Assembly: GCA_965178295.1 (NCBI GenBank) | Contig: CBCXTT010000003.1 | Span: 24,114 to 88,113, forward strand | DNA: 64,000 nucleotides | Direction: 5' to 3' | Source of the DNA: Alphaproteobacteria bacterium | GTDB taxonomy: Bacteria; Pseudomonadota; Alphaproteobacteria; UBA7879 | Shown here: piece by piece, positions 1 to 32,400 of the stretch | How positions within the stretch are numbered: the stretch's first letter is position 1 | Layout: every line of letters begins with the position of its first letter | Notes under the pieces: model-generated | Databases searched by the model: none | Told to the model about the DNA's origin: nothing | The model's input: the letters and a program-made list of their open reading frames with translations, nothing else | Program-made: the position numbers and the translations under genes

Positions 1-1283
1 GTTTGAAGATATGTTTTGATCTCATCGCCAGTCATAAAACTGCCAATCTTGTCGCGCATAATACACTTAATATAGTGCGCAAACCTAGACGCTGCAAGCA
101 TATAGGTGAGTCGAGCAGAAATATTGGCATTAGAATTTGCCTCAGCCGTATTGTATATCTTCGGCTTTTGCGTTGTTTGTGCACCAAAGAACGCCGCTTT
201 GTCTGTTGCCTTTTCGTGACAGAGCGCGATAAACCCGAGATCACTTAACTCTTTTTCACGACGGTCCGTAATCGCGATTTCAGTTGGACATTTAAGGGCA
301 ATATCGCCATCTGTTGTGTGGAAAGTATAAACCGGTAGATCTTCAACCAAGCCACCGCCTTCAACACCACGAATCGCTGCAGTCCATCCAAACTCGAAGA
401 ATGCATTGGTAATACGTTGTCCTAACATGTAGCATGCGTTTGTCCATGTGAACGTGTTTTCCGTAGCGCCGTCAACAGTCTCTGTGTAAGCTAGACCTTC
501 AACCGGGTTGGTATCTGGACCGTATGGCTCACGAATCAAAACCCGTGGTAGCGTCATGATCATATAGCGAGAATCTTCTGTCTCACGGAAAGAGTTCCAC
601 TTTATTTTATCAAGTGAGTCAAACAAACTTGCAAGATCTCGTGGTTTCCCAAGATCTGTGAAGGCCTTCAAGTTAAACATGGAAGGATCTGGCGCCGTGA
701 TCATGGGAGCGTGTGCCGCTGCCGCTACGTTGGACAACTTTGAAACAATCTCCATGTCTGCAGGTGTCGGCTTAAAGTAGTAATCGGCAAGCAAACAAGA
801 ATAAGGGTGCCCACCAAACGTACCATACTCTTCTTCATATATGTGCTTAAAGAGTGTGCTTTGGTCAAATTCAACTGCTTTTTCAAGGTCGTCAGCAATT
901 TCTTGCTTGGAGGCGTTGAACAGACGAATTTTAAGCTCGGTACCGGTTTCTGTGTTCATTACGAGATAGTTAAGCCCGCGCCACGATCCTTCAAGTGCCC
1001 GGAATTTATCATGATGCAGTATTTCATCTAGTTGTTGGCCCAAAAGATTATCAATTTCTTGAATTTTTTGATTTATAAATGCAACAGCATCATTGCTCAC
1101 AACCCCACCTTGTGTATTCAAGACCTCTTGTACGAACGTGGAAACCAGATCTTTTGCGTACACTTCTTGAGATGGATCATGGACCAAGTTTCCTTGGGTT
1201 AAGATTGTGTCTAAAATTCCACCCGTTGGTGCAGCAGCCCCACCTTTTGCAGGTGTAGTTGGTGTCTGTGTTTGATCAGCCAT
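1..1283 (-). CDS. tssC: Type VI secretion sheath large subunit TssC/VipB, N-terminal ~427 aa; the gene runs off the left edge of the window
   Basis: Manual reverse-complement translation from ATG (complement of 1281-1283) gives MADQTQTPTT...LPRVLIREPYGPD...GGLVEDLPVYTFHT...ARLTYMLAASRFAHYIKCIMRDKIGSF, which is diagnostic of the TssC family. No stop in the window explains its absence from the ORF track. Confidence 0.9.
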   Translation of the reverse strand, partial: MADQTQTPTTPAKGGAAAPTGGILDTILTQGNLVHDPSQEVYAKDLVSTFVQEVLNTQGGVVSNDAVAFINQKIQEIDNLLGQQLDEILHHDKFRALEGSWRGLNYLVMNTETGTELKIRLFNASKQEIADDLEKAVEFDQSTLFKHIYEEEYGTFGGHPYSCLLADYYFKPTPADMEIVSKLSNVAAAAHAPMITAPDPSMFNLKAFTDLGKPRDLASLFDSLDKIKWNSFRETEDSRYMIMTLPRVLIREPYGPDTNPVEGLAYTETVDGATENTFTWTNACYMLGQRITNAFFEFGWTAAIRGVEGGGLVEDLPVYTFHTTDGDIALKCPTEIAITDRREKELSDLGFIALCHEKATDKAAFFGAQTTQKPKIYNTAEANSNANISARLTYMLAASRFAHYIKCIMRDKIGSFMTGDEIKTYLQ

Positions 1284-1310
1284 TATTTTTCTCCCTTGAA
1301 CCCTTAAGTC

Positions 1311-1876
1311 TTATGATTTTTTAGGTGGTGACGATGGTTTTGCATCCCCACCTGCTGCAGCACTACTTCCTGCTGGTGCAGCCCCAATATTAAGGGACTT
1401 CTTCAATTGATTTTGCGTGTCTGTGTTGGACAGCACATCTGTAAGTAACGTGTCCAAAGTATCGTTTCCATCTAATTTTGTCATCAAATCATTGAGCTGT
1501 GTGCGCATCTGGTAGAGCTTATTCATTGCAGGGATTTTCTTGATCACGTTTATAGGATCAAAATCATCAATGCTTTGGAATTCGAGCAACAAATTAAGTT
1601 GCGTATCGTCATCTGTTAATTTGTTGTCCACTTTGAATGCGAGGCGTGGCCGTTGTTTTGCCATAATAACATTAAAATTATCACGATCAATTTCAGCAAA
1701 TTTACGTTTTTTTACGGAGTCCATCGGGTTGTCAGGATCGCGATCCCCTGAAAGGTCTGAAATGACACCTACGACAAAGGGTAATTCTTTCATTTCAATT
1801 GCATCACCAATCTCTACATCATAAGTGATGTGTACACGTGGTGGACGGACTTTGTCCAGTAAGTGTTGAGTCTCCA
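1311..1876 (-). CDS. tssB: Type VI secretion sheath small subunit TssB/VipA
   Basis: The ORF track gives 1311..1898 from a GTG. The family-typical start METQHLLDKVRPPRVHITYDVEIGDAIEMKELPFVVGVISDLSG is at the ATG (complement of 1874-1876), preceded by AGGGAG. It lies immediately upstream of tssC as expected. The C-terminus carries an extra Ala/Gly/Ser/Pro-rich tail. Confidence 0.85.
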
Positions 1877-2174
1877 TTTTGATAACTCCCTGTTGCACAC
1901 TTGTTATTAACTTAACTTAACTTAAAACAAGGATGGCATGTTTTTTTTTACTTGTCAAAGGGGGAAGTGGAAGATTTTTTTATAAAAGGTAGGGATAACA
2001 GATAGAACGCTACAGCTATTGTTTAAAATACATATATTCCAAATAATTACATTTGCTCTATTAGGGAAACATATATGCAAAAAAGTATGCTGTGCGTTCT
2101 TCTATCCTTTTCATTTTTAACCTACCGGGTTACAATAGCATGTTGACCAATATATAGCTTGATGAGAGACCGAG

Positions 2175-2837
2175 ATGGGCATACGTTATCCAGAATTTGT
2201 AGAGAATCCAGAAAATCGCTGTCCAGTGATTTTGTTACTTGATACATCCGCATCCATGGCCGGTGATCCTATAATGGCGTTAAATGCAGGGCTTGCAAAT
2301 TTTAAATTTGATGTCGAACACGATGAATTAGCGCTGCTGAGGGTAGAGGTTGCAATTATAACGTTTGGGACAGAGGTGTCTATACTGCAAGATTTTACCA
2401 CGATTGATAACTTTACAGCACCCCAGTTGGACGCCGAGGGTAAAACACCCCTCGGCCACGCTTTGAAAACAGGGCTGGCGCTACTTGAGAAGCGCAAAAA
2501 AATCTATCGTGAGGTGGGTGTGCAGTATTATAGGCCATGGATATTTTTGATTACAGACGGCGCGCCCACAGACGTATGGGAGCAAGCTGCAACCAATATT
2601 CATCAAGCTGAAGCAGAGAATAAACTGAGTTTTTTTACGATTGCTGTTGAGGGTGCGGATATGGAGATATTGCAGCAGGTGGCACCACCGTCACGCCCAC
2701 CGTTTACGCTTCGAGATCTGGCCTTTGATGCCTTGTTTCGCTGGCTATCGGCATCGGTTCGACGTGTTTCTACGGGGACAGTTGGGGGTGATATGGTGGC
2801 CTTGCCAGCAGTTTCAAGCTGGGCTGTGGCACGCTGA
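2175..2837 (+). CDS. Free-standing von Willebrand factor A (vWA) domain protein, TerY-like, cytoplasmic
   Basis: MIDAS motif LLLDTSASM (DxSxS) plus downstream ITFGT and LITDG elements. No TM or signal peptide. First gene of a plus-strand cluster divergent from tssB. Confidence 0.8.
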   Translation: MGIRYPEFVENPENRCPVILLLDTSASMAGDPIMALNAGLANFKFDVEHDELALLRVEVAIITFGTEVSILQDFTTIDNFTAPQLDAEGKTPLGHALKTGLALLEKRKKIYREVGVQYYRPWIFLITDGAPTDVWEQAATNIHQAEAENKLSFFTIAVEGADMEILQQVAPPSRPPFTLRDLAFDALFRWLSASVRRVSTGTVGGDMVALPAVSSWAVAR

Positions 2838-2851
2838 ACGGAGATCTAGTC

Positions 2852-3568
2852 GTGTGGTATATTGGGCATAGTGTGTCGGGAAAGAAAAGAGCACCAGGCA
2901 CTTGTCAAGATGTGTTAAGAGTCATGACCTGTGACCAACAAGTGGTTGCGGTATTATCTGACGGCGCAGGGAGCGCGGCACATGGTGGATTGGGTGCAAA
3001 AGTTGTAGTGCAGGCGGCTTTCTCATTCCTTCTAGGCCAAAAAATGCCAGGCCTACCATTGTGTGAGATGGCCGATGACTTGATTGCGCATGTCCGACAG
3101 ATCTTAATGGAAAACGCACGCAGTGTTCAAGTGCCAATATATGCACTTGATGCAACAATCCTCGTCCTTGTGGCAAGTCCGTTTGGCTATCAGGTGTTGC
3201 AAGTCGGGGATGGATTTATTGTGATTCAAAGTCAGGGAGAGATTGAGCGCATTGGAGCACCGCAAAAGGGTGAATATGCTAATGAGACCGTTTTTATTAC
3301 AGAAGATGGTGCGCAACCTGCGCTTTATGATAGTAAAGTGCCCGTACACTACTGGGCAATATCTAGCGATGGTCTGGAGCCAGTTGCAATTGAGGCAAGC
3401 GCTGGAACACCCCATGCGGCTTTCTTTCGACCGTTTTGGGAGTATTTAGACACAACGCCCGATATTGAGGAGGCAAACCAGGAGTTGCATAGATTTTTAA
3501 CATCCAGCCCTCTTCAGTCACGGATCCACGATGATGTATCTCTAGCGATAGGACATTGGCATGCATAA
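2852..3568 (+). CDS. PP2C-family Ser/Thr protein phosphatase (PppA/TagG-like)
   Basis: AVLSDGAGSAAHGGLGAKVV and VGDGFIV motifs typical of bacterial PP2C (SpoIIE-like) phosphatases. GTG start 15 nt after the vWA stop. The 3' end overlaps the next gene by 8 nt. Confidence 0.8.
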   Translation: MWYIGHSVSGKKRAPGTCQDVLRVMTCDQQVVAVLSDGAGSAAHGGLGAKVVVQAAFSFLLGQKMPGLPLCEMADDLIAHVRQILMENARSVQVPIYALDATILVLVASPFGYQVLQVGDGFIVIQSQGEIERIGAPQKGEYANETVFITEDGAQPALYDSKVPVHYWAISSDGLEPVAIEASAGTPHAAFFRPFWEYLDTTPDIEEANQELHRFLTSSPLQSRIHDDVSLAIGHWHA

Positions 3569-6353
3569 GGTATATAAAGCATCGGGTAGTGCTATTGTGC
3601 TCAAGGCAATTCTTGCGCGTGGAGGCGAAGGAGAAATTTGGCAGACGGATAACCCAGACGTTGTAACAAAGATATATCATGCGCAAGAGGCGATGCCGCT
3701 GGAGAAACTGGAGACCATGATTGCATCACCCCCCCATGATCCAACAATGGAGGCTCATCATGTCTCGATCTCATGGCCGCAGGAAGTGATATATGATGTG
3801 AATCAAGTGCCCATTGGTTTTTTGATGCCACGTGTGTCTGGCTCTCTAACGCTCAGCAACATTTACAACCCTAAGTTGCGACGGAACAAGGCGCCTGGGT
3901 TTAATTTTTATTACCTGCATACAGCGGCCCATAATATTGCGGCGATTATGGATTCTCTGCATGCACGTGGATATGTTCTGGGCGATGTTACGACAGAAAA
4001 CTTTCTTGTAAATGATCGGGCTTTGTGCGCCCTAAGCGATACTGATTCTATGCAAGTTCCGCATGGTAATAAAGTCTTTCGGTGTACAGTGGGATCCGAA
4101 GGCTTTACCCCACCAGAGCTTATCGGACAAGATTTTTATGCAATTGATCGAACGGCATATCACGACCGCTTTGGTTTGGCTATTCTTATACATCTTCTGC
4201 TTTTGGGCAGACATCCCTTTACGGGAACATGGCCTGCAGGGGAGGAACCCCTGTCTCTGGATCAGGCGATTAAAAATGGAATATGGCCTTATGCTACGGG
4301 AAAGAGACTGCAACCATCCATGCTTTCTGTTTCGTTAGATGTGATAGCGCCTCCGTTAAAAGCAGCATTCTTGAGCGCATTTAATGGAGAACCGGAATTG
4401 CGACCGACAGCGGCTGATTGGAAAAAGGTTCTGAGTGCTGCACGGGATGATTTGAGCGCTTGCGCGAAAAATAGCAATCATTATTACGATCACCATTTGA
4501 ATACATGCCCTTGGTGCGCGAGAGCGGAGGAAATGGGCCTTGATATTTATTCTGCTGTTTCAAATGACGTCATTGAGCACAAGGTGCGCTTTAACAAAGC
4601 TGTAAAAACAGACGATCAACGCTTGATGACACAATTATGGCAAGCGCATGAAACACTTCGTGCAGATGCTGCGTATCTGAATTTACGCGGGAGAATGCAA
4701 AAAATTGATAGAGATGTTCGGCTTTTGGATCGATTTAAAGCAGCTTGTCAGGAAGGCGTAGACGATGCAGCGCTGTTCCAGATGATTGCAGATAATCCTC
4801 GTCTTGAGACGCTCTCTGCATTTCTCCATGAAAAAATAAATGGGCAATCATTGGCTGTATTTTTTCAACAGCTTGATGCTCGCCGGAAGGCAATCGTGCG
4901 TGCTCAAGATGCAATTCGCCTAGCTGATCAATATTTTTCAGCAGTCTCTGCAACGCCGGCTCATGAGCAAGCCATCATTGATACTTCTAGGGCGTTAGAA
5001 GATATTCTGGAGACGCAAGGGCGTGCTGTTCCAGGTAATATGAGCGCGCGCTGGGCTATAGCTAAACAGCGCTTAGAATCGTGGAGAATATTTCAGCATG
5101 CACTGGATAAAAATGATTTCACGCTGCATAAAACATGGGTCGTACACGCAGAAAAACTCAAAGGTTTTCTGTTTCCAGATGACGTTCGCATGCACTTAGA
5201 GCAGGTGCAAAAACAAGATAAAATTCATGCAATATTTATGTCTCAGATTCGCAAGCAACCTTATGAAGATGCAGCTTTGATTGCGCTATGGGCCCAATAT
5301 CCCGCATTTCAAAAGACAATCTTTGCAAAAGAAAAGGTGTTTCGCGATAGATCTATTGAAGATTTTGTGTCGGATGCACAGAAACGACAGTTTCTGCTGC
5401 CTCTTTTAGATCACGCTTATGCGACATCTGATGTACACGGTATTTTGAATGCCTGGGATAAAAATGTGTGCGGGTATCATCCAGACTTCAAAAAATTTAA
5501 AAGCTATGCAGAAAAGTCTTTTGATGCTCAAAAGCGCTGGCATAAAGTACGGCGCTACATCTTAGAAGATGATCATGTGCAGATTGTGACGTTGTGGCAT
5601 GATAGTTTTACTACTCAGGCTATGCGAGAAGGATTGGGGCATAAGGTGCGTAATAGCTTTCGCCATCAAGAAACGCGCCGTTCCTCTTTTTCGTCTATGT
5701 ATTTTCCAAGAATGCGATTGCTTGAAAATTATATAGATGTATTGTTTCCCTGGCCTGTTTTGATCGATAGAACAGAAAAACGTGTGCGCACATCCTATGT
5801 TGTGGGCGTGGCTCAATCAACGTATGCAACCCCAGATCTAGAGAGGTGCAAGAGTGCGCTGAATATGCGTTATATATCGGCGGATAAATGTGGAGAAATT
5901 GGCCGATTAATATTACCTAGAACAATGCCAAAACCCCATATATTTATATGGGCGGCAGATTTTACAGCAGGGGGGGTGAGGCCTATAGGTTCTCACTTAT
6001 ATGTAACACACAATCAGAACTTGCCAACGATATCATATGATATTTTCGTTCAATCCTTTTGGAAAAGGGGCCGTACAACCATTGGCGTGCATATAGATGT
6101 AAATCAGGATATGCATTTACCATCGTTAGACGTTGTTGCAACGCATGGTCGCTTCCCTATTTTTCAGGATCCAGAAGCCATTGTTCTTGCTACTCTGCCA
6201 CCGTGTTGTTTAAAGATGGGGGGGCGTCACAAGATTATGATTTCCTCGAAACATCCGATCGAACGTGATATGATATTTCGCCTACAGTCACAGGAGAAAT
6301 TTTTCATGGACAACGTGACATTCGTTTACAATAGGCCACAGAAATATGCATAA
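3561..6353 (+). CDS. Divergent Hanks-type Ser/Thr protein kinase (PpkA/TagE-like) with ~600-aa C-terminal region of unknown function
   Basis: Recognisable kinase subdomains in the N-terminal ~330 aa: GGEGEIW (G-loop), VTKIY (Lys), HARGYVLGDVTTENFLV (catalytic loop D...N), LSDTDS (DFG-like), GFTPPEL (APE-like), DRFGLAILIHLLLLG. Residues ~330-930 are helical with a CPWC pair and no family I can assign. No TM segment. Overlaps the PP2C stop in an ATGCATAA arrangement. Confidence 0.75.
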   Translation: MHKVYKASGSAIVLKAILARGGEGEIWQTDNPDVVTKIYHAQEAMPLEKLETMIASPPHDPTMEAHHVSISWPQEVIYDVNQVPIGFLMPRVSGSLTLSNIYNPKLRRNKAPGFNFYYLHTAAHNIAAIMDSLHARGYVLGDVTTENFLVNDRALCALSDTDSMQVPHGNKVFRCTVGSEGFTPPELIGQDFYAIDRTAYHDRFGLAILIHLLLLGRHPFTGTWPAGEEPLSLDQAIKNGIWPYATGKRLQPSMLSVSLDVIAPPLKAAFLSAFNGEPELRPTAADWKKVLSAARDDLSACAKNSNHYYDHHLNTCPWCARAEEMGLDIYSAVSNDVIEHKVRFNKAVKTDDQRLMTQLWQAHETLRADAAYLNLRGRMQKIDRDVRLLDRFKAACQEGVDDAALFQMIADNPRLETLSAFLHEKINGQSLAVFFQQLDARRKAIVRAQDAIRLADQYFSAVSATPAHEQAIIDTSRALEDILETQGRAVPGNMSARWAIAKQRLESWRIFQHALDKNDFTLHKTWVVHAEKLKGFLFPDDVRMHLEQVQKQDKIHAIFMSQIRKQPYEDAALIALWAQYPAFQKTIFAKEKVFRDRSIEDFVSDAQKRQFLLPLLDHAYATSDVHGILNAWDKNVCGYHPDFKKFKSYAEKSFDAQKRWHKVRRYILEDDHVQIVTLWHDSFTTQAMREGLGHKVRNSFRHQETRRSSFSSMYFPRMRLLENYIDVLFPWPVLIDRTEKRVRTSYVVGVAQSTYATPDLERCKSALNMRYISADKCGEIGRLILPRTMPKPHIFIWAADFTAGGVRPIGSHLYVTHNQNLPTISYDIFVQSFWKRGRTTIGVHIDVNQDMHLPSLDVVATHGRFPIFQDPEAIVLATLPPCCLKMGGRHKIMISSKHPIERDMIFRLQSQEKFFMDNVTFVYNRPQKYA

Positions 6354-7362
6354 TATATTTTCTAAATCATTGTGTCCGTACTGCTACAAGTCTTTTTATC
6401 CGTGGGAAAAAATGTATCGATGTCAGGCCCTGACGCAGGTATGCAAGCCTGTTGAAGATACAGTATATCATCGTCATTTTGGTACAAAAAAAATCATGGG
6501 GCATGTTGTGACACCTTCTATTCGAGGGTTTTCTGATTTGATGCGCTTTTTAAGCAAGGAGTTGGCAACACGTTGTACGAGCTGTGCATCTTTGGTGACA
6601 CAACCAATTTGTCCAGGGTGTCATGGGCATTTGCCTAAGCGACAAGGTAAGACACCTGTCGTACCTATTTTGCTTGCAGGAGCCAGTATTAGCGCTCTTA
6701 AAACGTATCGTTCAGCGCTTCTGCATCAACTCCAGGCGGCTGAAGGGCATATAGCTGGTATGATTGTTGAAGATTTAGCTGAGGGTGACGGCATTATTAT
6801 CTCTTTTGAGATTGCTCAAGGGCGGCGGACCAGGCTACCATGTTTTATCTCCACATTTCCGATGGTAACATGGAAGGACTTGGCGCGTCTCCCTCGTGCG
6901 TTTGATATAAACAAGTTATCTGGTGTGATCGCGGTATTGTCTGGAAAGGCGCTAGGTGATATAGGTCATCAGTATGCGATGACAAGCCTAAAGGCGTTAC
7001 TGGATGTGGCGGATGAGGAAAGAAGCTTTTGGCAGAAAACGCCACTTGCTATTGCCCTAGATGACATGGAAAAGTGGCAGGCTTGTGTTCCTGGCGGGAG
7101 TGTGCTGTGGGGGCGAGGTCAACATACCAAAGGGTATGACGTACAAGATGGATCCAGCGTTTCTGCTGAAGTGCGTGCCTGTTTTGGCTATTGGGCTGGG
7201 TTAAATGTACTGCAGTTTTTAAAGAAAAATTTTAAAACTTATAGTTTTTTTGGTATTTCAAAAGAGCGATATAGTACGGGCCGTGTTGCGCCTTATGCTC
7301 GTGTTGAGGATCCTTATTTTTGGCTGCTCTATCGGCAAAAAATACTTGAAAAAATGCTTTAG
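6346..7362 (+). CDS. Cys-rich double zinc-ribbon protein of unknown function (338 aa)
   Basis: N-terminus has CPYC...(~10 aa)...C...C and then C..C...CPGC, i.e. two zinc-ribbon-like Cys4 clusters in the first ~95 aa. The remainder is unassignable. Start overlaps the kinase stop by 8 nt (ATGCATAA), implying translational coupling. Confidence 0.6.
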   Translation: MHNIFSKSLCPYCYKSFYPWEKMYRCQALTQVCKPVEDTVYHRHFGTKKIMGHVVTPSIRGFSDLMRFLSKELATRCTSCASLVTQPICPGCHGHLPKRQGKTPVVPILLAGASISALKTYRSALLHQLQAAEGHIAGMIVEDLAEGDGIIISFEIAQGRRTRLPCFISTFPMVTWKDLARLPRAFDINKLSGVIAVLSGKALGDIGHQYAMTSLKALLDVADEERSFWQKTPLAIALDDMEKWQACVPGGSVLWGRGQHTKGYDVQDGSSVSAEVRACFGYWAGLNVLQFLKKNFKTYSFFGISKERYSTGRVAPYARVEDPYFWLLYRQKILEKML

Positions 7363-7457
7363 GCATTTTCAATGTAGTATGATGTTGTTACAATATCCTG
7401 GACTGGGCTATCTTCAGGCAGGGAAAGCGATGCAATATTGGAAGAGCGTATAGGAAT

Positions 7458-8303
7458 ATGATTGTTGGTCTGGTCGTCTTGACAGGCATTATTGTGGCTC
7501 TATCAGTATCTCTCTGGCTTAAACAGGATCACCATCAAGCTGCGCTCACACCGTATACAGTGTATTTTTCTGAGACCGTATCAGGCCTGCCTATTGGCAG
7601 TGCTGTAAAATATCGCGGCATTCGCGTGGGGTCAATTTCTGATATTCATATTCCTAGGAAAAATTCAGAATCCATTGCTGTAAGTGTGATGATTGATAAA
7701 AACACACCTGTTGGAATGGGGAGAAGAGCTTCTTTGCAAATGGCAGGCATTACAGGCGAGTCATATCTGGAGATTAGCGGCGCTGTCCATGATGACGGGC
7801 CTGTATCGCCTCCTGCTGGTGAGTCTGTTCCTGTTATTCCATCTGAAGAATCTTCTATTCAAAAAATTGTATCGACAACCCCTGCGCTTCTAACTCATGC
7901 AGATCAGCTGATTCAGAGAACCGCTACAGTAGTCTCGGTCGAAAACCGTGCAAAATTCTCAAAAATACTTGAAAATGTGCAAGATATTACACAGGCACTT
8001 TCAGATAGTCGGAGTGATTATAGCAATCTGATGTCAAATTTTCGTGTGATCAGTGAAGAAATGCGTACAACACTTCAGTCAATAAATGGCGCTATGGAGA
8101 GCCTAAATTTTGCAGGGAAAAATATTGATCATTTTGTTCAGGATGTGCGCCCCCATATTGCCAGTTTTGCAGAGAATGAGTTGCCTAACTTTGTCCTTTT
8201 AACAGATAAGCTTATGGCAACATTAGGTGATCTTAGGGACGTTTTGAGAACGATCGAGCCTAAGATAGAGTATTTTACCAGATGCGGGCGAAAGGAGTTA
8301 TAA
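7458..8303 (+). CDS. MCE/MlaD-family protein (single MCE domain, N-terminal TM anchor, C-terminal helical region)
   Basis: N-terminal TM MIVGLVVLTGIIVALSVSLWL. MCE domain signature YTVYFSETVSGLPIGSAVKYRGIRVGSISDI...AGITGESYLEISGA. Confidence 0.8.
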   Translation: MIVGLVVLTGIIVALSVSLWLKQDHHQAALTPYTVYFSETVSGLPIGSAVKYRGIRVGSISDIHIPRKNSESIAVSVMIDKNTPVGMGRRASLQMAGITGESYLEISGAVHDDGPVSPPAGESVPVIPSEESSIQKIVSTTPALLTHADQLIQRTATVVSVENRAKFSKILENVQDITQALSDSRSDYSNLMSNFRVISEEMRTTLQSINGAMESLNFAGKNIDHFVQDVRPHIASFAENELPNFVLLTDKLMATLGDLRDVLRTIEPKIEYFTRCGRKEL

Positions 8304-8309
8304 GCTTAT

Positions 8310-8924
8310 ATGAGATGGGTTTTACTATGCTGCCTACCCTTTTTCTTGACTGGGTGCGTTCATATCTTTCCGGAGCAGCCCTCTGGGGTGAAAACAATCG
8401 TCATTCGAGCGGAAGGATGTTCAGCGGTTGAAGGACCAGAGGTAGAATCGCAGTTAATTGTTGAACGTCCTACCACAAGCTCGGAGTTGGATAAAAATAT
8501 CATTGCTGTTATGGGTGAGACAGATACACTTCTGTATATTTCGGATACAGTTTTGTCCGATGACTTGACCGAGGTAATTGAGCGCGCGACAATTGAGGCT
8601 TTTTTGGAGAGTAAAAAAATAAAAGGTGTTGGAGGAAATGGGAGCGGTATTAGCGCAGATTATATTTTGCTGAGCGATATCGACTCTTTTGGTCTATACG
8701 TACCACATAAAGGCGCAACACCAGAAGCACGCTTTGAGATGGTAGGCCAGTTGGTGGATGTTAAAACGCGGAAAGTTGTTTCTAAAAAACGCTTCAGTGC
8801 GATGGTTCCCGTACCAGCAAAGACAGTATCTGTAGTTGCAAACGCACTGAATGATGTTGTTTCGCACGTGCTCAGGGATGTTTTGACCTGGGTGCTTTCT
8901 GCAGGGCATGTGGCGCTAAAATAA
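8310..8924 (+). CDS. Lipoprotein, likely ABC-transport auxiliary component (DUF330/PqiC/YmbA-like)
   Basis: Signal peptide with lipobox FFLTGC. ~200 aa, immediately downstream of the MlaD-like gene, as is typical for DUF330 partners of MCE proteins. Confidence 0.6.
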   Translation: MRWVLLCCLPFFLTGCVHIFPEQPSGVKTIVIRAEGCSAVEGPEVESQLIVERPTTSSELDKNIIAVMGETDTLLYISDTVLSDDLTEVIERATIEAFLESKKIKGVGGNGSGISADYILLSDIDSFGLYVPHKGATPEARFEMVGQLVDVKTRKVVSKKRFSAMVPVPAKTVSVVANALNDVVSHVLRDVLTWVLSAGHVALK

Positions 8925-9340
8925 CACACGAAGTGGCGTAAGATATCTTGCCTGTATTGCATCATGTTTTGCAGGAAGCGCGAATCGAGATATATATGTC
9001 GAGTAGCGCATGCTCGATACCCCCAGTATGGCGAGCAATCATCGTGCTGTTGACTCTTGCGTAAAACAACAATATGTATTGCATTTTCCTTGAGTTTTTT
9101 CTGACCTGAAGGAGCAATCCTACGTGTCTTCATGAGATAGAGTTCTGCTGTACAGTCTGTAATTTATTTAATTTTTCAGTCGAGAGTGTGCGTGAAGACG
9201 CTCTTGGCGCAACAAAAATTTGCGATAGTGCGTCAAGTAACTGCATCAGATAGAAATATGTGAGTGATGCCTTTCCCAGGATACACTGACATCATACGGT
9301 AGCTATTGCATGCACATTGAGGACGTTTTTTCCATATCCT

Positions 9341-10174
9341 TCACTGTTTGTTGATGTGGCGATGATAACAATGGGGGCAGGAAAAATTTTCTTCGTATAG
9401 AACACTTGATTCATCTTCTTTTGTGAGGGGGGCGCGACACCTGTAACACTGCTTCATGCCGGTCTCCTGGAGTTTGAAATTCAGAGCGACACGCTTGTCA
9501 AAAACAAAGCAATCTCCTTCATAGTGTGCGCCACCACATTTTTCAAAGTATTTTAAAATGCCTCCCTCTAGTTGTACTACATTATGGAATCCATTCTGTT
9601 GCATATATGGCGCAGCTTTTTCACAACGAATGCCGCCAGTGCAAAACGTGACAATAGGGATTGTTGGACTAATGTTGCGTAAGTTTTGTATTGCATCTGC
9701 AAATTCTTTGAAATGGGTCATCTGAAAATGAATCGAATTTTTAAAGGTGCCGACACGGACTTCATAGTCATTTCGTGTATCTATGATAATAAAGTTTTTT
9801 CCAGAGTCGTACCAACTCTTGAGTGCCTCTGGCGTGATGTAGGGAGCTGGGTTGGATGCTGGGTCAAGGGTGCGCTGGCTAAACGGAATGGTTTCCCGCT
9901 TAATCCGTACAAGCATGCGGGTAAAAGGCTGGGCGCTGCTGTAGCTCTCTTTCCCTTCTAAATGCTCAAGTCCATCTATTTGATGCACACACTCTAGAAA
10001 GGCGTAGACATTTTCTTTGTAACCTGCAATAAAGAAGTTAATGCCTTCAGGAGCTAAGAGCACGGTACCTTTTAAATTCTCAGAACGAGCTTTGGACAGT
10101 AGTGCTTCTTTATGCGCTTTAAGTCCATTAAGGTGTAAAAATTTATAAGTCGATATATTTAGATATTGTTGCAT
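9341..10174 (-). CDS. trhO: Rhodanese-domain tRNA U34 hydroxylase TrhO (YceA/UPF0176)
   Basis: N-terminal UPF0176 region followed by a rhodanese domain with active-site CTGGIRCEK and a C-terminal Cys pair (CYRC...CPHC). Confidence 0.85.
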   Translation of the reverse strand: MQQYLNISTYKFLHLNGLKAHKEALLSKARSENLKGTVLLAPEGINFFIAGYKENVYAFLECVHQIDGLEHLEGKESYSSAQPFTRMLVRIKRETIPFSQRTLDPASNPAPYITPEALKSWYDSGKNFIIIDTRNDYEVRVGTFKNSIHFQMTHFKEFADAIQNLRNISPTIPIVTFCTGGIRCEKAAPYMQQNGFHNVVQLEGGILKYFEKCGGAHYEGDCFVFDKRVALNFKLQETGMKQCYRCRAPLTKEDESSVLYEENFSCPHCYHRHINKQ

Positions 10175-25284: not shown

Positions 25285-26511
25285 GTGTCTACCCTAAAAT
25301 CTATCATTGCGCCTCTAATAAGCATGCTCTTCTGTATGATGGCAAATGGTTTTTTTGCAACGCTTATGGGCGTTCGAATCAAAGAGCTTGGCCTGAGTAA
25401 TATGATGATTGGCCTTATAACAGCGTCTTTCTATGCGGGCATAATACTGGGTTCTTTTAAAGTAGAACGTTTTATTAAACACGTGGGCTACATTAGAGCC
25501 TATATGGGCTACGCAGCAGTGTGTACACTTTTTACGCTCCTGCAAGGCTTTTACCTCGAAGATCCTTGGACATCTGTTGTGATGAGATTTTTTGTGGGGT
25601 ATTGCATTGGTGGATTTTTTATCACATTAGAGGGTTGGGCCATGTGCGTTACGACCACAAAGAACCGTGGGCTTATTATGGCGTTAATGATGATCACGCT
25701 GTATTTAGGTTATTCACTTGGACAATTTTTTATTGCACTCGACATGTCCAATGATCTTGCTGCGTTTAATATTGTAGCGCTTCTTTTAGTGCTGTCTCTG
25801 TTGCCGATGGTTGTGACACGGAGTACGGCGCCAGCAATTAAAGACACTTCGCTTTTAGGGCTTGAAACTCTTTATAAAGCCTCGCCCACGGGTGTGATCG
25901 GGTGCTTCTTAGTGGGGTGTTTAACAGCAACCATTTATGGGATGTTTCCTGTCTTATTTAAGGCACTATCCTACAGTAGCTTTGATATTTCCCTTGCGAT
26001 GTTTTTAGTTGTGTTTGGAGGGATGTTTGGGCAGTATCCATTAGGAAAAATGTCAGATCGTGTAGGGCGTCGACCTATACTTTTGTGGGGCAGTGTTGCA
26101 GCATTAGTACTTTTATTGCTTATTATCCTGCTATATAAATCTTTGAGCGCGCCTCTCCTTGGCCTATTTTTTTTATTTGGCTTTTTCTGTTACCCCATGT
26201 ATCCACTGGTTTTAGCCCATACGTGCGATGTTGTGCAGCCCAAAGATTTTACAGCCGCTATGCAGAGATTGATTTTAGTCTTTGGCACAGGATCTGCTAT
26301 AGCGCCCATTTTTTCTGCAATTATGCTGGATATTTTTGGGAATTTAGGTATTTTATTGACAGTTTTAAACATTTTATTGGCCATGATTACCCTTTTCATT
26401 TGGCGTCACAATATAGACTCACAGATTGCAGTTGATGACCAAAGGAAATTTGAAGGCGTGTTAAGCCCGATGCCGATTACAGGCATTAAGCGCTTTAAAA
26501 ATAAGCGATGA
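25285..26511 (+). CDS. Major facilitator superfamily transporter
   Basis: 408 aa, ~12 TM segments. MFS motif GKMSDRVGRRPILL between TM halves. GTG start directly after GGAGGTGAT. Confidence 0.85.
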   Translation: MSTLKSIIAPLISMLFCMMANGFFATLMGVRIKELGLSNMMIGLITASFYAGIILGSFKVERFIKHVGYIRAYMGYAAVCTLFTLLQGFYLEDPWTSVVMRFFVGYCIGGFFITLEGWAMCVTTTKNRGLIMALMMITLYLGYSLGQFFIALDMSNDLAAFNIVALLLVLSLLPMVVTRSTAPAIKDTSLLGLETLYKASPTGVIGCFLVGCLTATIYGMFPVLFKALSYSSFDISLAMFLVVFGGMFGQYPLGKMSDRVGRRPILLWGSVAALVLLLLIILLYKSLSAPLLGLFFLFGFFCYPMYPLVLAHTCDVVQPKDFTAAMQRLILVFGTGSAIAPIFSAIMLDIFGNLGILLTVLNILLAMITLFIWRHNIDSQIAVDDQRKFEGVLSPMPITGIKRFKNKR

Positions 26512-26939
26512 CCGCTCCCTTACACGCGCGACTATCAGCACTTCTTTTGCTTATGGAAAAATTAGATGCGTGATCTCAATGGATTGCTGTGATGATTTCT
26601 ATCCCCTCCCTGTTTTTTTTGACAAGCATGGGCAGTCGAAGGATATGGAGAATATACGCCTTTTATCCTTTTTGATTCATTCTTATGCTCGCACAGATGG
26701 AGATCCATGTTCTACATAGCTCGCGCGCATATGATTTCTCATGACTTGCATTTTCTATGCATATAAAAAGAGTATGTGAGTTGGCTATTTGATGTATTGA
26801 TCTCTACTAAACAATCCCTCAAAAAACCGGCTGTGGTGCGTGAGGAATAACGCAGAGGCCAATATTTGGGAGTGAATTGATCCTGATCGTTAATAGAGTG
26901 TGTGTGACATCAATATGTGGGATGCTCATAATTGAGCAC

Positions 26940-29030
26940 TTTTAGTGTATCGACGTTTATTGAGTTGATACGGGGGGTAGTAAGTTAAGAATAATAGCTA
27001 TAACGCCTATTAGGAAGAGCGAGAAAAATTCTTCTCCTGTTATGTGTGATGGTCATGGCCCTGTTTCTTTACCGGTTTTGAAAAGGCAACATCCATATAT
27101 TCTTCGCGCTCTTTTTGAACCCTTTTGTCTTCCAGGCGCACGTTTTGGAACTGGAGTGGTATTTTATTGCATCCTCTGCATCGTTTAATCCTGTTGCTGG
27201 CGCGATATAGAGGTACCTGCTCTTATAGAATTCAAAGCATGCGACTCATTATCCAAACACCTATTTTGTATAGGCGCGTGACGTATATCATGGACCGGAC
27301 TGTTTTCAATTGTACTGCTGCAATTTGAGCCACAACCCCTTTCTTGCAGAGCGATATAAAATAGCCATAGTCTCCTTGGTCACTGGATTAGGAATGTTAA
27401 GTTGTACGCTGCTCAAGGAATTAAAATGAAAAGGTCATCATAGCCACATGGCGCATCAAAGACCTTTATCGCTGAATCTACAAATGCATAAACCGCAACT
27501 TACCTATCTACTTACCTACCTATTATGTATTTTTACACCGTATGACATGGGGGTGTGTATCGTTCATTCGGGATTTTGGTGTTTTGTTGGTTGTGCGTGC
27601 TACTGGAGGATGTAATGCTCATAAATATGCTGCATACAATATTTTGGCGCTCTTGTGCTACAGTAGACTGCACAGGACATGATATTGTGCATACACTTAC
27701 CAAACAATCTATCAAACAACAGATTTAGTTCTTTATTGAGCATTGCGCCCTTGATTTAAGTATGGATAAAGATTGCGTATGTCGCGGTTGGGTAGTACGT
27801 GGAATCTTGAAGACGGTATCTTGCAATCCATTGCGTTCAAGAACACCCAGTCGTTCTAAAAACATGGGGGAGTATGATGTGGTATGGACGCGCCTGTTTA
27901 TACTGTATATACATGCAAGGGAGATGGAAATGCTATGCTTTTGCGGTCAGGACTTTTGCTTCAGGGCTGCGAATGTATGCAATTTCACCTATCTGGAATT
28001 TATGGGTTTGGATGGTTGATTTCAGAAGGTGCGCGTGGCAAGGAAGAGGGTATACCTTCACCAACTCTTAAGGCGAACGGTTTATGGCGTGATATGGACC
28101 ATCTGCCAACGGTCTAGCATATCGAGATGTCATGAGTCGTGCTATGGCAATTGAAATGCAAGAAGGACGAGATTTTTGGCCTGGAAAAGATCATATCCTG
28201 GTTACATCGTGCGTATCTCTCCCCAACGTTGTTGGAAGAGCAGGTTACCTGGTATTTCTGAAAAAGCTAAAATTTTGCAGGCGCTGCTGTAGCGCGTGAA
28301 CCAATCCCTTGTGTTGCCAATATTGTATTATAACATGTGGGGTGTGCCAATAAACTCTCATGGAGAGAAGTGCTGAATCCAGAAAAATTAGATATAGAGG
28401 CATTGGTTCCGAGTTTACTGGAAATTGGAGAAACTGCATGTGTGCCTATTCATGGAGCGAATCGCGTGGGTGTAAACTCTTGAGTTGATCTTGTGGTTTT
28501 GGGCGTGCCGTGGGCTATGGCTGCAAAGGCAATCCACATGACATCTCTATGGGGGTGTCACAACACCCAGAGTTGACCCCCGATGCAATGGTTAACACGC
28601 CATACACAGACTAGATATAATGTGGTACTCAAAGGGTGCAGAAAGTGTTCATGATATCCGCTTTTCCATGCACAAGGTTATGCCGCAGAATTGTGCTGTT
28701 TTTAGAGATGCGTATATGCTCCAGAAAGAGTGCGAAGAACTTGCGAAAGTCCTTGCACGTATGAAACGCGTGCACGGAATACGGATCTGGTGGAAGTCCT
28801 CGATCTTGAGAATTTGATGGTGCAGTCGTTGGTGACGATACATAGCGCGCTTGGAAATTCGTGGCGTTCATGCCCACGCAGATTGCAGAGTAGCGATGAC
28901 GAGCATTAGCTAACGCATACATAACATGGATTGATGCGGCAGGAAACGTAAGTCGACCCGTGCCATTCAAAAAGGCCGGTACTTTCCAGGATTTGAGCGC
29001 ACGATAAACATTATAAAAGGTGCATATATA
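26940..29030 (+). pseudogene. sdhA: Succinate dehydrogenase flavoprotein subunit (sdhA) relic, broken by frameshifts and stops
   Basis: SdhA-like pieces spread across frames: VDTGGSKLRIIAI (cf. VGAGGAGLRAA), LPVLKRQHPY (cf. LSKVFPTRSHT), ELEWY (cf. NWEWHMY), DCTGHDIVHTL (cf. DRTGHALLHTL), RDVMSRAMAIEMQEGRDFWPGKDHI (cf. RDVVSRAMTIEIREGRG..KDHI), ILYYNMWGVP (cf. TVHYNMGGIP). Only ORFs <=152 aa are present. Confidence 0.65.
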
Positions 29031-29032
29031 AG

Positions 29033-29760
29033 TTGCATATATATCGTTACGACTCAGTCTTAGGAGACAATCCACTATTGGATACATATGAAGTCGACCG
29101 CGATATGTGCGGTCTTATGATGTTGGATCTTGTCATAAAAATCAAAAATGAGATTGATCCAACGTTAACGTTTTGGTCGGCTCATGTCGTGAGGGGATTT
29201 TCGGTAGTTGTGCTATGAATATCGATGGTATTAATATTTTAGTCTGCATTACTCCTATAGAAAGCCTTCAAGGAGGAGGTTAAGATTTATCCCTTGTCAC
29301 ACTACCATAATATGCCCATCATGAAGTACTTGGTTCTGGACTTGACCTTGACCCTGGCCTTATGTGCAATATGCCTCTATGCAGCCGTGGTTAAGAAGTA
29401 ATACATTATCCTGCCGGAGATCGTTCAAGCCTTCAAAGCCCAGAAGAACGGCAAAAATAGGATAGTCTTTGGGAGGGGGGTGCATTTTACGTTTCGCCTG
29501 TTTTACAAGTTGTCCTAATTACTGGTGGAGTGGTGGTGGATATTTAGCCCCGCACCATTTTTCTTCAGTCCTGTCGTTGACTGCAAGATCCATGTGCTGA
29601 TCATACGGGGGAGTGCTTAGATGCATTGGAAGATTCTTTTAACTATACCATATGTCATACGATTATGCACTGTACAAAAACATGTCCGTAAGGGTTGAAT
29701 CCCGCACAAGCTATCTTAGAGACAAAAAATGCTCGCGGAACGACACTAGTCCTGTTTGTA
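29033..29760 (+). pseudogene. sdhB: Succinate dehydrogenase iron-sulfur subunit (sdhB) relic with frameshifts
   Basis: [46 protein letters not shown] (cf. [43 protein letters not shown]), then stop. [16 protein letters not shown] in another frame. CPNYWWSGGGYLAP (cf. CPSYWWNGDRYLGP). [23 protein letters not shown] (cf. [23 protein letters not shown]). Confidence 0.7.
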
Positions 29761-32294
29761 AAAATTCTTCTAGTGGAAGCATGCCATGCTCTATTCCAGA
29801 AATTTTTTGGATTAGTCTTTAAGATGCTCATGCGTGCGTTCTTGACCCATTCTTCTGAGAGTGTTGGTCGAGGAAAATATCACTAGATGGATCCTGTGAT
29901 CATAACCCAAAATATGCCCGAAGAAACATGCATGCTCTCACGTTTTTATGCAAGAAACCCAAAAAACTTTATATATGATTAGGCGTCAAGCAGGCTAGAC
30001 GATATTCATTGAGCAGTTTGCTGATCACATGACGCGCTCGCTTTTTGATATTTTTCTTGTTCAACATGTTAGGGCGGTGCGATGTTACTCAAGTGTCTTG
30101 TTGAAAGGATAGTATGTCGCAAAGGTTTTGATAGTGACAACAATCACATACTAATTGTGCCCGATTTTTTCCACGTTGAAAAAAGATGCGCCCCCTTTTT
30201 AATTGGTGTGCAGTACAAGCGTGGTGCACACCAATATCGCCGTTCTGGTGGGGCAGGTGCGAGAAAACGGTTGATTTGAGTGCATGCTGCTCTTAAATCG
30301 CATAAGAAATATGGAAGTCATGCATGTCTTGCTAAAGTAAGGGGGGTCGGAATATCTTATACGTAAAAGAGCAGGCTATTGTTGCGCTCATTTAAGATCG
30401 ATGTGCCACATAGACTGCCCGGTACAGAGAAAGGGGTTTAAGACATAGTTGATTCTGGATGTATAGATGGTGACGGTAGGTCAGAATCGATGCCATTTCA
30501 AGTGCTGATATTAATGTTGTGCATAACAAGAATTTTATCCTATATATGAATATGTCTGTATATATGCATACGGAGATATATGGCAGCTCATGCGCATTCA
30601 TACTGTTATTGACAGGTGTTTACAAGATAAGCACATTATATCCTTACAATGCGGGCACGTCGTCTTCTGGGTACGTTAAGGCAATGAAGCAATGAAACAA
30701 GGATGAGTGGCGCGATATTAATGCCATGCATTCCATGCTTGATGATGTTTAGAAGTGCATGCAAGGTATGTAGATAGGGCCATTATTATGTGGTCTGAGT
30801 ATGCTGAGAGGGGCCGCTCCCAACGTGAAAAAAGAGCGTTATACAGTTGAAATGGATCCGTGTTTTTTGCAAAAAACGCTCTGTTGGATAGGACATGTGC
30901 CGCTGGTGTCGCCCTCTTTTGACTTCAAGACGCTCCCTGCTAAGGTGGTAATGTTGTTGGTGGGATTTTGTATGAGCGTGCGTCTTTAGCAGCATTCATG
31001 CAATTTAGATGTGGATGCGAGACTGGAACTCCCTATTCCTGCCTAATAGTAAGGACAAGTGCATGATGGTATTCTAGGGAAGAATCAGAGAGCATATCGT
31101 TGACAATGTTCTGTGTTGTATTTTCGGCTTTTTTTGAGATGTTTCATTGCTTCAGACCTTTGGTGATATTTGGTGCGGGAAGTGGGAAGAAGAATGGAGC
31201 GCAAGCATCTTTATTGCAGAAGTGAATAGAATTATGTCTGTTCGAATCCATTAAACATTTTAGTCAAATATAGTATGAAATTTGGGTGCGTATTACAGCA
31301 GTCCACTGAGGGTGGAATATGCAGTTTCTTGTCTATCAGCGTTTTGCATCATTTTTTGGAAAACATGATGCAGCTTTTAGAAAAATTTCTATGATTGTCT
31401 CATACCTTCTTTATGTGTTGCAATGAAAACGTTTTTGATAGCCAGTGGTGTATGGGTTGAATACAACACGTATTACTGCTGCACATTGCCTTCGATAGGC
31501 GGATTCTTGGTAAGGTGATTCAATGTGGCGATCACACTGCAGAACGTAATAGAATTGTTGCTGAGTATTAGCGATGTATGTGGAACTTGATAGAGATGGC
31601 CTACTGGGTGCTGGACAAAATAGGAAACCAAAAAAAGAACAGCGTACTGTTGATGGCGGTGAGATGTATTATGCTGCCGATGTAAAACTACCCTTGTCTT
31701 TTACGTATAAGCGAGTGTGCGGGCTGTCATATGCATGAATACGATGTAATTTATTTATGCATAATGTTGAGCCATTCGTGCTATATGTGAACAAGGTGCT
31801 CTCCCCCTTCTAGACTCTACAAGTTTGAAATGAGCAACAGACTACGCGCGATGTTTGTGCAAGATTATTCAACATGAGCAGACGTATACCGATTGTTAGA
31901 GCCTCAATATCGAAGAAGAACGGTATTAGCTTCAATGATTTCTGTGTATCGCATAGATTGTCTTCCAGTGTTGAGACCAACGTGTGTATCAATCTCTAAA
32001 GCGTAATCTATTCAAACAATGATCAGTATCGGTGCTATGTATCGTTCTATTGCCAACGATATAGGCTCGTAGATTAATCATTGAGAACATGCGAGCACTT
32101 TATGGACCAAATTCATAGAAGAGGTCGCCCTGTCATCGCTGTCCTACAATACCAGAAAGAAACCTTATATACATATAGCGGTGAAGGGTTTTCTGTTTTT
32201 CCTAGAAAAGTGTTTTTGATACGATATATGAGGTGCGCGTAGCATTTTTTTTGATGCGTGCATTTTTGGTGCATAAAAAACATAAAAACAGTTC

Positions 32295-32323
32295 TTGACG
32301 AACAGTCGATGACAGCATAATAT
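32295..32323 (+). promoter_or_regulatory. Putative sigma70 promoter of the str/ribosomal operon (TTGACG-17 nt-TAATAT)
   Basis: TTGACG at 32295-32300, a 17-nt spacer, TAATAT at 32318-32323. ~80 nt upstream of the rpsL ATG (RBS AAGGA at 32388-32392). Confidence 0.5.
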
Positions 32324-32400
32324 GCAGCTCACAACTAATGTTATTGAGAGCTCCTGTCCCGTGTGGGATAAGAACTTATTTGGGTAAAAAGGACCGGATT

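Follow-up and report, generated by a model that had tools for sequence, protein, structure and literature searches.

A predicted phospho-signalling cassette of the TerY-P family beside type VI secretion sheath genes in an alphaproteobacterium

A stretch of 64,000 nucleotides from the genome of an alphaproteobacterium (contig CBCXTT010000003.1; hereafter the window) was found to carry, next to the sheath genes tssB and tssC of a type VI secretion system (T6SS), a predicted cytoplasmic phospho-signalling cassette of four genes (2175-7362), specifying a von Willebrand factor A (vWA) protein, a PP2C phosphatase, a Ser/Thr kinase with a long C-terminal arm, and a zinc-ribbon pseudo-GTPase. By sequence homology, the first three are counterparts of yegL-pphC-yegI of Escherichia coli K-12, that is, of the TerY-P triad. 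The cassette is read here, with a modest balance of evidence in favour, as a lineage-specific version of this triad that is tied to the T6SS in its alphaproteobacterial clade. Domains and the state of their motifs were identified, orthology to the E. coli triad was recognised, and the T6SS neighbourhood was seen to recur; these results are set out below together with the observations that favour other explanations.

The vWA protein matches E. coli YegL over its full length (210 aa) with 50% identity (E 3e-64), is about 60% identical to the vWA proteins of cyanobacterial triads, and has an intact metal ion-dependent adhesion site (MIDAS) motif, D23-T-S-A-S (DTSAS at residue 23). The PP2C protein is 32% identical to PphC (E 5e-33), while residues 3-344 of the kinase are 34% identical to aa 6-351 of YegI (E 3e-51), an alignment that spans the C..H..CxxC zinc ribbon. 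The TerY-P triad was defined by Anantharaman et al. 2012 (summarised in PMC11090510) as a TerY-like vWA protein, a PP2C phosphatase, and a Ser/Thr kinase with a C-terminal zinc ribbon, and the window has the same set: a stand-alone MIDAS vWA protein, a neighbouring PP2C, and a kinase fused C-terminally to a zinc ribbon. The order vWA-PP2C-kinase was recovered in about 70 loci by a genome scan with the kinase alignment, spread over cyanobacteria, Streptomyces, Flavobacterium, planctomycetes, and alphaproteobacteria. A preliminary reading of the window made from the DNA alone (the sequence-only reading) had rightly described the vWA protein as separate and apparently cytoplasmic, since it is encoded by its own gene and no transmembrane (TM) segment is present in any of the four proteins of the cassette, but it had taken this layout to be new. 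Because about 70 loci share the same gene order, a separate cytoplasmic vWA protein is the norm of the family, and the supposed novelty is the known triad. Biochemical work has characterised the YegI kinase and PphC phosphatase of E. coli (Rajagopalan & Dworkin, preprints 10.1101/303594, 10.1101/819920); the triad is widespread, and the literature consulted names no physiological output for it.

The identity of the sheath genes, as proposed in the sequence-only reading, was confirmed by profile searches. TssC matched VipB (3.6e-126) and VipB_2, TssB matched T6SS_VipA (1.9e-51), and the two passed both sheath equivalog models far over cut-off (TIGR03355, 554.9 bits against 271.5; TIGR03358, 170.8 bits against 97.25). 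The length of TssB, 188 aa, equals that called for the orthologue in the closest relative, L001. Comparison of gene neighbourhoods across alphaproteobacterial loci placed the cassette beside T6SS genes in three arrangements. In the first (A), tssB is divergent from the cassette, an order seen in six loci (window, L001, L002, L003/L007, L004/L009, L006) that represent about four deep lineages, with kinase identity down to 31%, TssC identity of 66-95%, and a right flank that turns over. Its left side reads tssG-tssF-tssE-two hcp-like genes-tssC-tssB, with clpV before it where the locus reaches that far (L002, L003/L007, L004/L009). In the second (B; L093 and, from another sample, L070), the genes for TssH (TIGR03345, 1200 bits), VgrG, a YwqK-like MORN_2 protein, and a PAAR-like DUF4280 protein are followed directly by vWA-PP2C-kinase, the kinase here being a more distant long kinase. 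In the third (C; L094, L095), the vWA, PP2C, kinase, and pseudo-GTPase genes are followed by those for a YwqK-like protein and DUF4280, and then by genes for a SPOR-domain protein, an unannotated 171-aa protein, a GerE/LuxR-type regulator, TssK, TssL, and TssM. Among about 55 triad loci outside the long-kinase clade (cyanobacterial, actinobacterial, and other), none had T6SS genes within 10 kb. T6SS genes fill, as a rough estimate, a few percent of such genomes. With three independent gene orders chance is hard to invoke, and a functional tie between cassette and T6SS is therefore slightly favoured over its absence.

Two divergent Hcp-like genes (weak PF05638) were noticed after tssC in L001 (3450-4617) and L002 (4788-6003); the equivalent region lies to the left of the window. 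A review describes Holosporales as being without a recognisable inner-tube gene, and these genes may be the missing Holosporales Hcp.

The kinase was modelled with AlphaFold2 (AF2; mean predicted local distance difference test score, pLDDT, 83.7) as a kinase domain (aa 1-296), a zinc ribbon (298-325), a helical region (338-702), and a beta-sandwich region (707-925). The zinc-ribbon element directly follows the kinase domain, with strands at 298-300 and 308-310 and a helix at 317-325, and its ligands C301, H307, C316, and C319 are invariant in alignment A3. Fifteen full-length relatives (28-62% identity) keep these ligands as well as K37, D142, N147, D160, and D162. The helical region consists of tandem repeats: its comparison with itself by hhalign gave off-diagonal matches at E ~1e-12, with offsets of about 48, 116, and 165 positions that would fit units of roughly 50-55 aa. 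Structure searches with the kinase model matched protein kinases only; the C-terminal arm matched no Pfam family and no solved structure, and a PDB sequence search with the beta-sandwich region found no match. GAP1, FNIII-repeat, and GASH families had no Pfam match in the cassette proteins or in the C-terminal 600 aa of the kinase, where weak homology may escape such a search, and the idea that GAP1 domains lie hidden in the kinase C-terminus was dropped for want of Pfam support.

The fourth protein had no Pfam match at E <=0.01, and a word-index protein search returned five relatives. A HMMER profile of its close relatives matched 827 cluster representatives, and the matches tested carry PF19993 or PF19975 (DO-GTPase2 or DO-GTPase1), with P0134 at 5e-34; PF19993 is also recorded for the fourth gene of L088, an orthologue. 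In alignment A4, the motifs GxxxxGK[ST] and DxxGE are present in all six of L088, L071, P0134, P0139, P0140, and P0157, and the third motif, [ST]K[LIVM]D, in five of them, with PKLD in L088. The Walker A, Walker B with Glu, and NKxD-like motifs are all absent from the proteins of the window, L001, L002, L003, L004, L011, L090, and L094, and relative to active members the window clade has a deletion of about 25 aa. Both N-terminal zinc ribbons were kept (CxxC...RC...C and CxxC...CPxCH), and this part of the protein gives weak matches to the ribbons of Spt4, L32, and Nop10; a PDB sequence search with the GTPase profile likewise retrieved zinc ribbons only. Since all three motifs and about 25 residues have been lost and the ribbons retained, the protein is best called a pseudo-GTPase, that is, a predicted divergent homologue of the DO-GTPases (PF19993 family) with lost nucleotide-binding motifs. 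An AF2 model from a 5-sequence alignment was unusable (mean pLDDT 37), and a metagenome scan with the pseudo-GTPase alignment gave two short loci only.

Kaur, Burroughs, Iyer & Aravind 2020 (PMC7159879) described the DO-GTPase family and with it an 'actinobacteria-restricted' theme that combines DO-GTPase/GAP1-N2 systems with a kinase-zinc ribbon-beta-rich fusion, a PP2C, and a stand-alone vWA protein. The sequence-only reading had called the fourth gene product a Zn-ribbon protein and counted its presence among the differences from the PpkA/PppA/Fha pathway; the ribbons are indeed there, but the family had already been linked to kinase, PP2C, and vWA genes in actinobacteria. What the present data add is that the kinase-PP2C-vWA-DO-GTPase theme is now seen beyond actinobacteria, its reported limit (PMC7159879), and that a probable case of a DO-GTPase turned pseudo-GTPase is documented.

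Heat-shock-type partners were noticed at two other triad loci. In Streptomyces L071 (10027-18605), the open reading frame (ORF) over the kinase match, which was picked among many overlapping ORFs of a high-GC locus, has a radical-SAM-like Fer4_12 domain and no Pkinase match. Next to come are an ORF of 467 aa without annotation, a ClpB-like AAA protein, a protein resembling HSP70, and an active DO-GTPase. The E. coli K-12 triad has as neighbours yegJ and the HSP70-family gene yegD (L091 1675-3027), and no T6SS gene is present in the 10-kb locus examined. Together, L071 and yegD suggest a wider association of the triad with HSP70-like partners.

The extent of the conserved unit was judged from relatives. 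The series vWA-PP2C-kinase-pseudo-GTPase recurs with 31-63% kinase identity, while the genes after the four vary: the MlaD and lipoprotein genes occur there only in L001, an outer membrane protein gene in L002, and a pseudouridine synthase gene in L003 and L004. The MlaD-lipoprotein pair of the window is for this reason taken as a neighbour and not a member of the cassette. The sequence-only reading had guessed the domains of all six plus-strand genes well, as VWA, PP2C_2, a weak Pkinase, MlaD, and ABC_trans_aux were matched and the fourth protein is Cys-rich. It had also noted the tight packing of the first four; 14 nt separate the vWA and PP2C genes, the next two junctions overlap by 8 nt each, and gaps of 95 nt and 6 nt precede the MlaD and lipoprotein genes. 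Its view of the six genes as one module did not hold, since four recur and the remaining two are shared only with L001, the kinase of which is 63% identical. The MlaD-like protein has a single MCE domain and an N-terminal TM helix, and neither an MlaE permease nor an MlaF ATPase was found among the annotated ORFs of at least 150 aa outside the ribosomal-protein block of the 64-kb window (hereafter the annotated ORFs). In L032 (131-3619), a full MlaE(STAS)-MlaF-MlaD-lipoprotein operon lies 5 kb upstream of the triad, and the pair in the window is the orphan half of such an operon, as had been recognised in the sequence-only reading. An arrangement in which all six genes form one T6SS accessory operon, coupling signalling to an envelope-spanning MCE device, would draw on their common strand, on their close spacing in the window and L001, and on the lack of the usual MlaE and MlaF partners of the pair at this locus. 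It is judged very improbable, given that the pair is missing after the cassette in L002, L003, L004, L006, L011, L088, L090, and L094, and that the 95-nt gap ahead of mlaD holds a promoter-like site (7366-7394).

Several observations weigh against a tie between the cassette and the T6SS. L011 (Holosporaceae UBA7879), L088, L089, and L090 belong to the same long-kinase clade and have no T6SS gene within 10 kb, their cassettes being flanked by housekeeping or flagellar genes, and in a rough neighbour-joining tree the non-adjacent loci are interspersed with the T6SS-adjacent ones. Members of the triad family are widely found where there is no T6SS, E. coli K-12, cyanobacteria, and Streptomyces among them. 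Vertical synteny may account for part of the conserved adjacency, and L003, L004, and L011 also share right-flank genes. The substrate of the cassette, an FHA reader, and a contact with the T6SS remain hypothetical. Lastly, the window kinase itself carries Thr144 (codon ACG, 3990-3992; catalytic loop GDVTTEN) in place of a near-invariant catalytic-loop Lys, which at least 90% of relatives have (GD[IV]K[TP][DE]N), among them the 63% identical kinase of L001. This substitution makes kinase activity uncertain; it could mean that the kinase is weakened or has changed its specificity, or it could be an error of the assembly. The suggestion in the sequence-only reading of a regulatory or accessory module for a T6SS is thus plausible from the three arrangements and is weakened by the four loci of the same clade without a nearby T6SS gene. 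That reading had also held that synteny of the cluster in genomes lacking a T6SS would make the adjacency coincidental, and here the result was divided: the triad is common without T6SS genes, but the long-kinase clade is recurrently adjacent to them. T6SS genes of Holosporales are scattered over at least four loci and nearly universal (PMC8163844, PMC11909080), so that non-adjacency is no proof of T6SS absence, and co-occurrence alone is uninformative; Holospora is reported to be without a T6SS (PMC11909080).

Many of these points would also be expected of a stand-alone conflict, defence, or stress cassette of TerY-P/DO-GTPase type, found near T6SS genes through variable 'conflict' regions or inherited synteny. 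TerY-P and DO-GTPase systems, to whose families the cassette is assigned, are predicted conflict or defence modules that tend to cluster with other conflict loci (PMC11090510, PMC7159879), and such a role is backed by predictions and phage-defence data for TerY-P-like modules (PMC11090510) and DO-GTPase systems (PMC7159879). Their abundance in taxa without T6SS and the four non-adjacent loci of the clade point the same way, as does a toxin-antitoxin-like pair inside the L006 cassette (8237-9981), where a Fic/DOC-domain gene and an HTH_3 gene are inserted between PP2C and kinase and the cassette is otherwise intact. Set against this are the three T6SS-linked gene orders, compared with none among about 55 other triad loci, and flanks made up of housekeeping genes with no mobile elements. 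In addition, the cassette lacks the GTPase switch, GAP1, and the variable effector components of DO-GTPase systems, and a PADLOC scan gave no match for its vWA, PP2C, or GTPase-like protein, the kinase giving weak generic matches (the inclusion of TerY-P models in PADLOC 2.0 is unconfirmed). A stand-alone cassette is consequently a serious alternative, if a rather unlikely one.

The T6SS neighbourhood could also be explained if the eukaryote-like kinase, the phosphatase, and the vWA protein were cargo, or effector-associated proteins, delivered by the T6SS into a eukaryotic host. This would account for their position beside vgrG, PAAR-like, and YwqK-like genes, as the cassettes of L093 and L094 occupy the usual effector/immunity/adaptor site next to VgrG, DUF4280, and MORN_2/YwqK-like genes. 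It would also suit the labels of the relatives, which are Holosporaceae or Alphaproteobacteria metagenome-assembled genomes (MAGs), as Holosporales live inside protists and are believed to direct their T6SS at the host (PMC8163844, PMC11909080). However, the homology of the three proteins to the YegL-PphC-YegI set of E. coli, which is cytoplasmic, is clear; free-living bacteria that have no T6SS commonly carry the same operon; and the Pfam and TIGR scans gave no match to an effector marker (PAAR, Rhs, MIX, or other). A reversible kinase/phosphatase pair in one operon would, moreover, be typical for signalling rather than for toxins, and delivery as cargo is considered improbable.

YwqK-like MORN_2 proteins recurrently adjoin the cassette or sit between it and vgrG/PAAR-like genes (Table 1). 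In one database protein, P0155, MORN repeats are joined to a DO-GTPase2-like domain (sub-threshold in Pfam, 22 bits against a 27-bit cut-off); this protein was also matched by the fourth-gene profile. YwqK-vgrG pairs are a known trait of Holosporales T6SS loci (PMC8163844).

Table 1. Features of the cassette region of the window, and YwqK-like genes at related loci (positions for the latter refer to the locus named)
Feature	Position	Strand	Remarks
tssC, T6SS sheath large subunit	1..1283	-	N-terminal 427 aa; gene continues past the left window end
tssB, T6SS sheath small subunit	1311..1877	-	188 aa from ATG at 1877
Divergent AT-rich intergenic region, tssB/vWA	1878..2174	.	297 bp; GC 0.33 against 0.43 for the window
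vWA protein	2175..2837	+	Pfam VWA, 2.9e-9
PP2C phosphatase	2852..3568	+	PP2C_2, 9.2e-35
Ser/Thr kinase	3561..6353	+	930 aa; Pkinase 2e-6, under the Pfam cut-off
Cys-rich fourth protein (pseudo-GTPase)	6346..7362	+	No direct Pfam match
MlaD-like protein	7458..8303	+	MlaD, 6.8e-14
PqiC/DUF330-type (ABC_trans_aux) lipoprotein	8310..8924	+	3.1e-6, 27.3 bits against a cut-off of 26; lipobox LTGC
YwqK-like MORN_2 gene, L014	6609-7802		
YwqK-like MORN_2 gene, L032	13437-14213		
YwqK-like MORN_2 gene, L093	7216-8013		
YwqK-like MORN_2 gene, L094	13318-14352		

Between tssB and the vWA gene lies an AT-rich divergent gap, as the sequence-only reading had noted, although the length of 276 bp given there has to be revised to 297 bp because the start of TssB is taken as the ATG at 1877, as in L001, in preference to the GTG at 1898. 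Within this gap, at about 1929-1951, lies the motif AGGATGGCATG with a T-run, which all six tssB-adjacent loci have kept (alignment A5), while its surroundings diverge freely. On the minus strand, the motif possibly overlaps a candidate tssB promoter, TTGACA-17-CATCCT, and it may be part of that promoter or an operator; a sigma-70-like promoter for tssB is thus possible. A sigma-54 reading of the conserved TGGCAT motif was dropped, as the -12 element is missing or offset. A generic promoter/terminator scan showed no enrichment over shuffled sequence.

How the cassette might act on the T6SS can be outlined from known systems. The PpkA/PppA/Fha pathway is a precedent for a kinase and PP2C pair that gates T6SS assembly, and the recurrent adjacency seen here suggests an undescribed phosphorylation switch for the T6SS. 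The scheme below is drawn from the biochemistry of YegI and PphC, the TerY-P prediction, and the PpkA/PppA precedent; co-transcription, the substrates, the cue, and the effect on the T6SS are all inferred by analogy. The shared divergent control region would co-express the sheath operon and the cassette, and the C-terminal arm of the kinase and the pseudo-GTPase would serve as sensor and scaffold. Upon a cue, the kinase would autophosphorylate and also phosphorylate either the vWA protein or a component of the T6SS; through its MIDAS site, the vWA protein would then bind a partner and gate T6SS assembly or firing, and the PP2C would reset the switch.

A more far-reaching proposal, offered tentatively and with the evidence leaning somewhat against it, is that the cassette represents an unrecognised, FHA-independent form of post-translational T6SS control in protist-associated alphaproteobacteria, and a functional analogue of PpkA/PppA. 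The soluble kinase would in that case sense its cue by way of the arm and the pseudo-GTPase together, and would license T6SS assembly by phosphorylating the vWA protein or else a component of the baseplate or sheath, with the PP2C again resetting the switch. If true, such an FHA-independent pathway would give TerY-P/YegL-PphC-YegI triads their first defined cellular output. A literature search for T6SS with TerY, or with vWA, PP2C, and kinase, found no description of the link. Almost all sequenced Holosporales are reported to have kept the T6SS, which is regarded as their chief means of interacting with the host, although experiments on how it works and what it secretes are said to be lacking (PMC11909080). 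The link of one triad clade to the T6SS in several architectures therefore provides a concrete, testable hypothesis both for the Holosporales T6SS and for the output of the triad.

The remaining genes of the window are those of an ordinary chromosome: LptA/B, NifU, AccA, a ribosomal protein block, SpoT, LepB, Rnc, Era, RecO, ParC, and Mfd; an Rfam scan of the window found one tRNA and nothing else. An ORF-poor stretch of about 5.8 kb (26500-32340) contains sdhA remnants at 27645-28534, spread over three frames and 40-51% identical to SdhA of L092, and an SdhB-like motif near 29190; from 29087 to 32338 the longest open frame is at most 85 codons. This stretch looks like a decayed succinate dehydrogenase (sdh) operon, which, together with the ordinary chromosomal content, fits a host-dependent alphaproteobacterium, and the source organism is an uncultured and probably endosymbiotic member of this class. 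The MAG labels of relatives are unreliable as to taxonomy. Identical or near-identical contigs bear conflicting labels (L008 and L011, Verrucomicrobiales against Holosporaceae), and L007 and L009 are labelled 'Rhizobiaceae' or 'Rhizobium sp.' on low-GC contigs with endosymbiont-like gene content.

The relationship of the locus to known systems can be summarised as follows. With the MlaD and PqiB-PqiC MCE systems, the window shares a single-MCE protein and an ABC_trans_aux lipoprotein, but MlaE and MlaF, which precede this pair in L032, were not found among the annotated ORFs. The PpkA-PppA-Fha1 pathway (with TagQRST) likewise has a kinase and a PP2C by T6SS core genes and involves a vWA domain, and it is plausibly an analogue in logic, with reversible phosphorylation gating assembly. 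It differs in that the window has no FHA family match in the eight locus proteins or the annotated ORFs, that in place of a membrane PpkA it has a soluble kinase of YegI type, that its vWA is a separate cytoplasmic protein rather than a periplasmic domain, and that there is an extra pseudo-GTPase. On these grounds, the sequence-only reading was justified in setting the locus apart from the canonical pathway. That the locus is instead a rearranged PpkA/PppA/Fha threonine-phosphorylation pathway, with the vWA domain split from PpkA, might be argued from the presence of all three domain types beside T6SS genes, the architecture of PpkA being taken from general knowledge. It is extremely improbable, as there is also no FHA among the called genes of L001-L004, L093, and L094, the kinase is without a TM segment, falls under the Pfam Pkinase cut-off, and groups with YegI, and the vWA protein is 50% identical to YegL.

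The antiphage TerY-P system of Gao et al. 2020 (per PMC11090510) is likewise a vWA-PP2C-kinase cassette, but its kinase has an OB-fold fusion (PMC11090510), whereas that of the window has a zinc ribbon, repeats, and a beta-sandwich, and no OB-fold family was matched by Pfam in the locus proteins. The 'third theme' of the DO-GTPases (PMC7159879), a layout shown by Streptomyces loci L071-L085 with AAA and HSP70-like genes in addition, also combines a zinc-ribbon DO-GTPase homologue with a kinase-zinc ribbon-beta-rich fusion, a PP2C, and a stand-alone vWA protein. By contrast, the window has an alphaproteobacterial host, has lost the GTPase motifs, and has T6SS genes adjacent, and the GAP1, FNIII, HSP70, and AAA components are absent from its cassette. 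The closest correspondence is with TerY-P/YegL-PphC-YegI, which has the same three proteins in the same order (stand-alone MIDAS vWA, PP2C, kinase-zinc ribbon). Compared with this triad, the window kinase has an arm of about 600 aa, of helical repeats and a beta-sandwich, replacing the C-terminal region of YegI, and the cassette has the pseudo-GTPase as a fixed fourth gene and T6SS neighbours. The parts are, then, those of known families; what is new is their alphaproteobacterial four-gene form, with its long repeat arm and predicted dead GTPase, and the recurrent T6SS neighbourhood.

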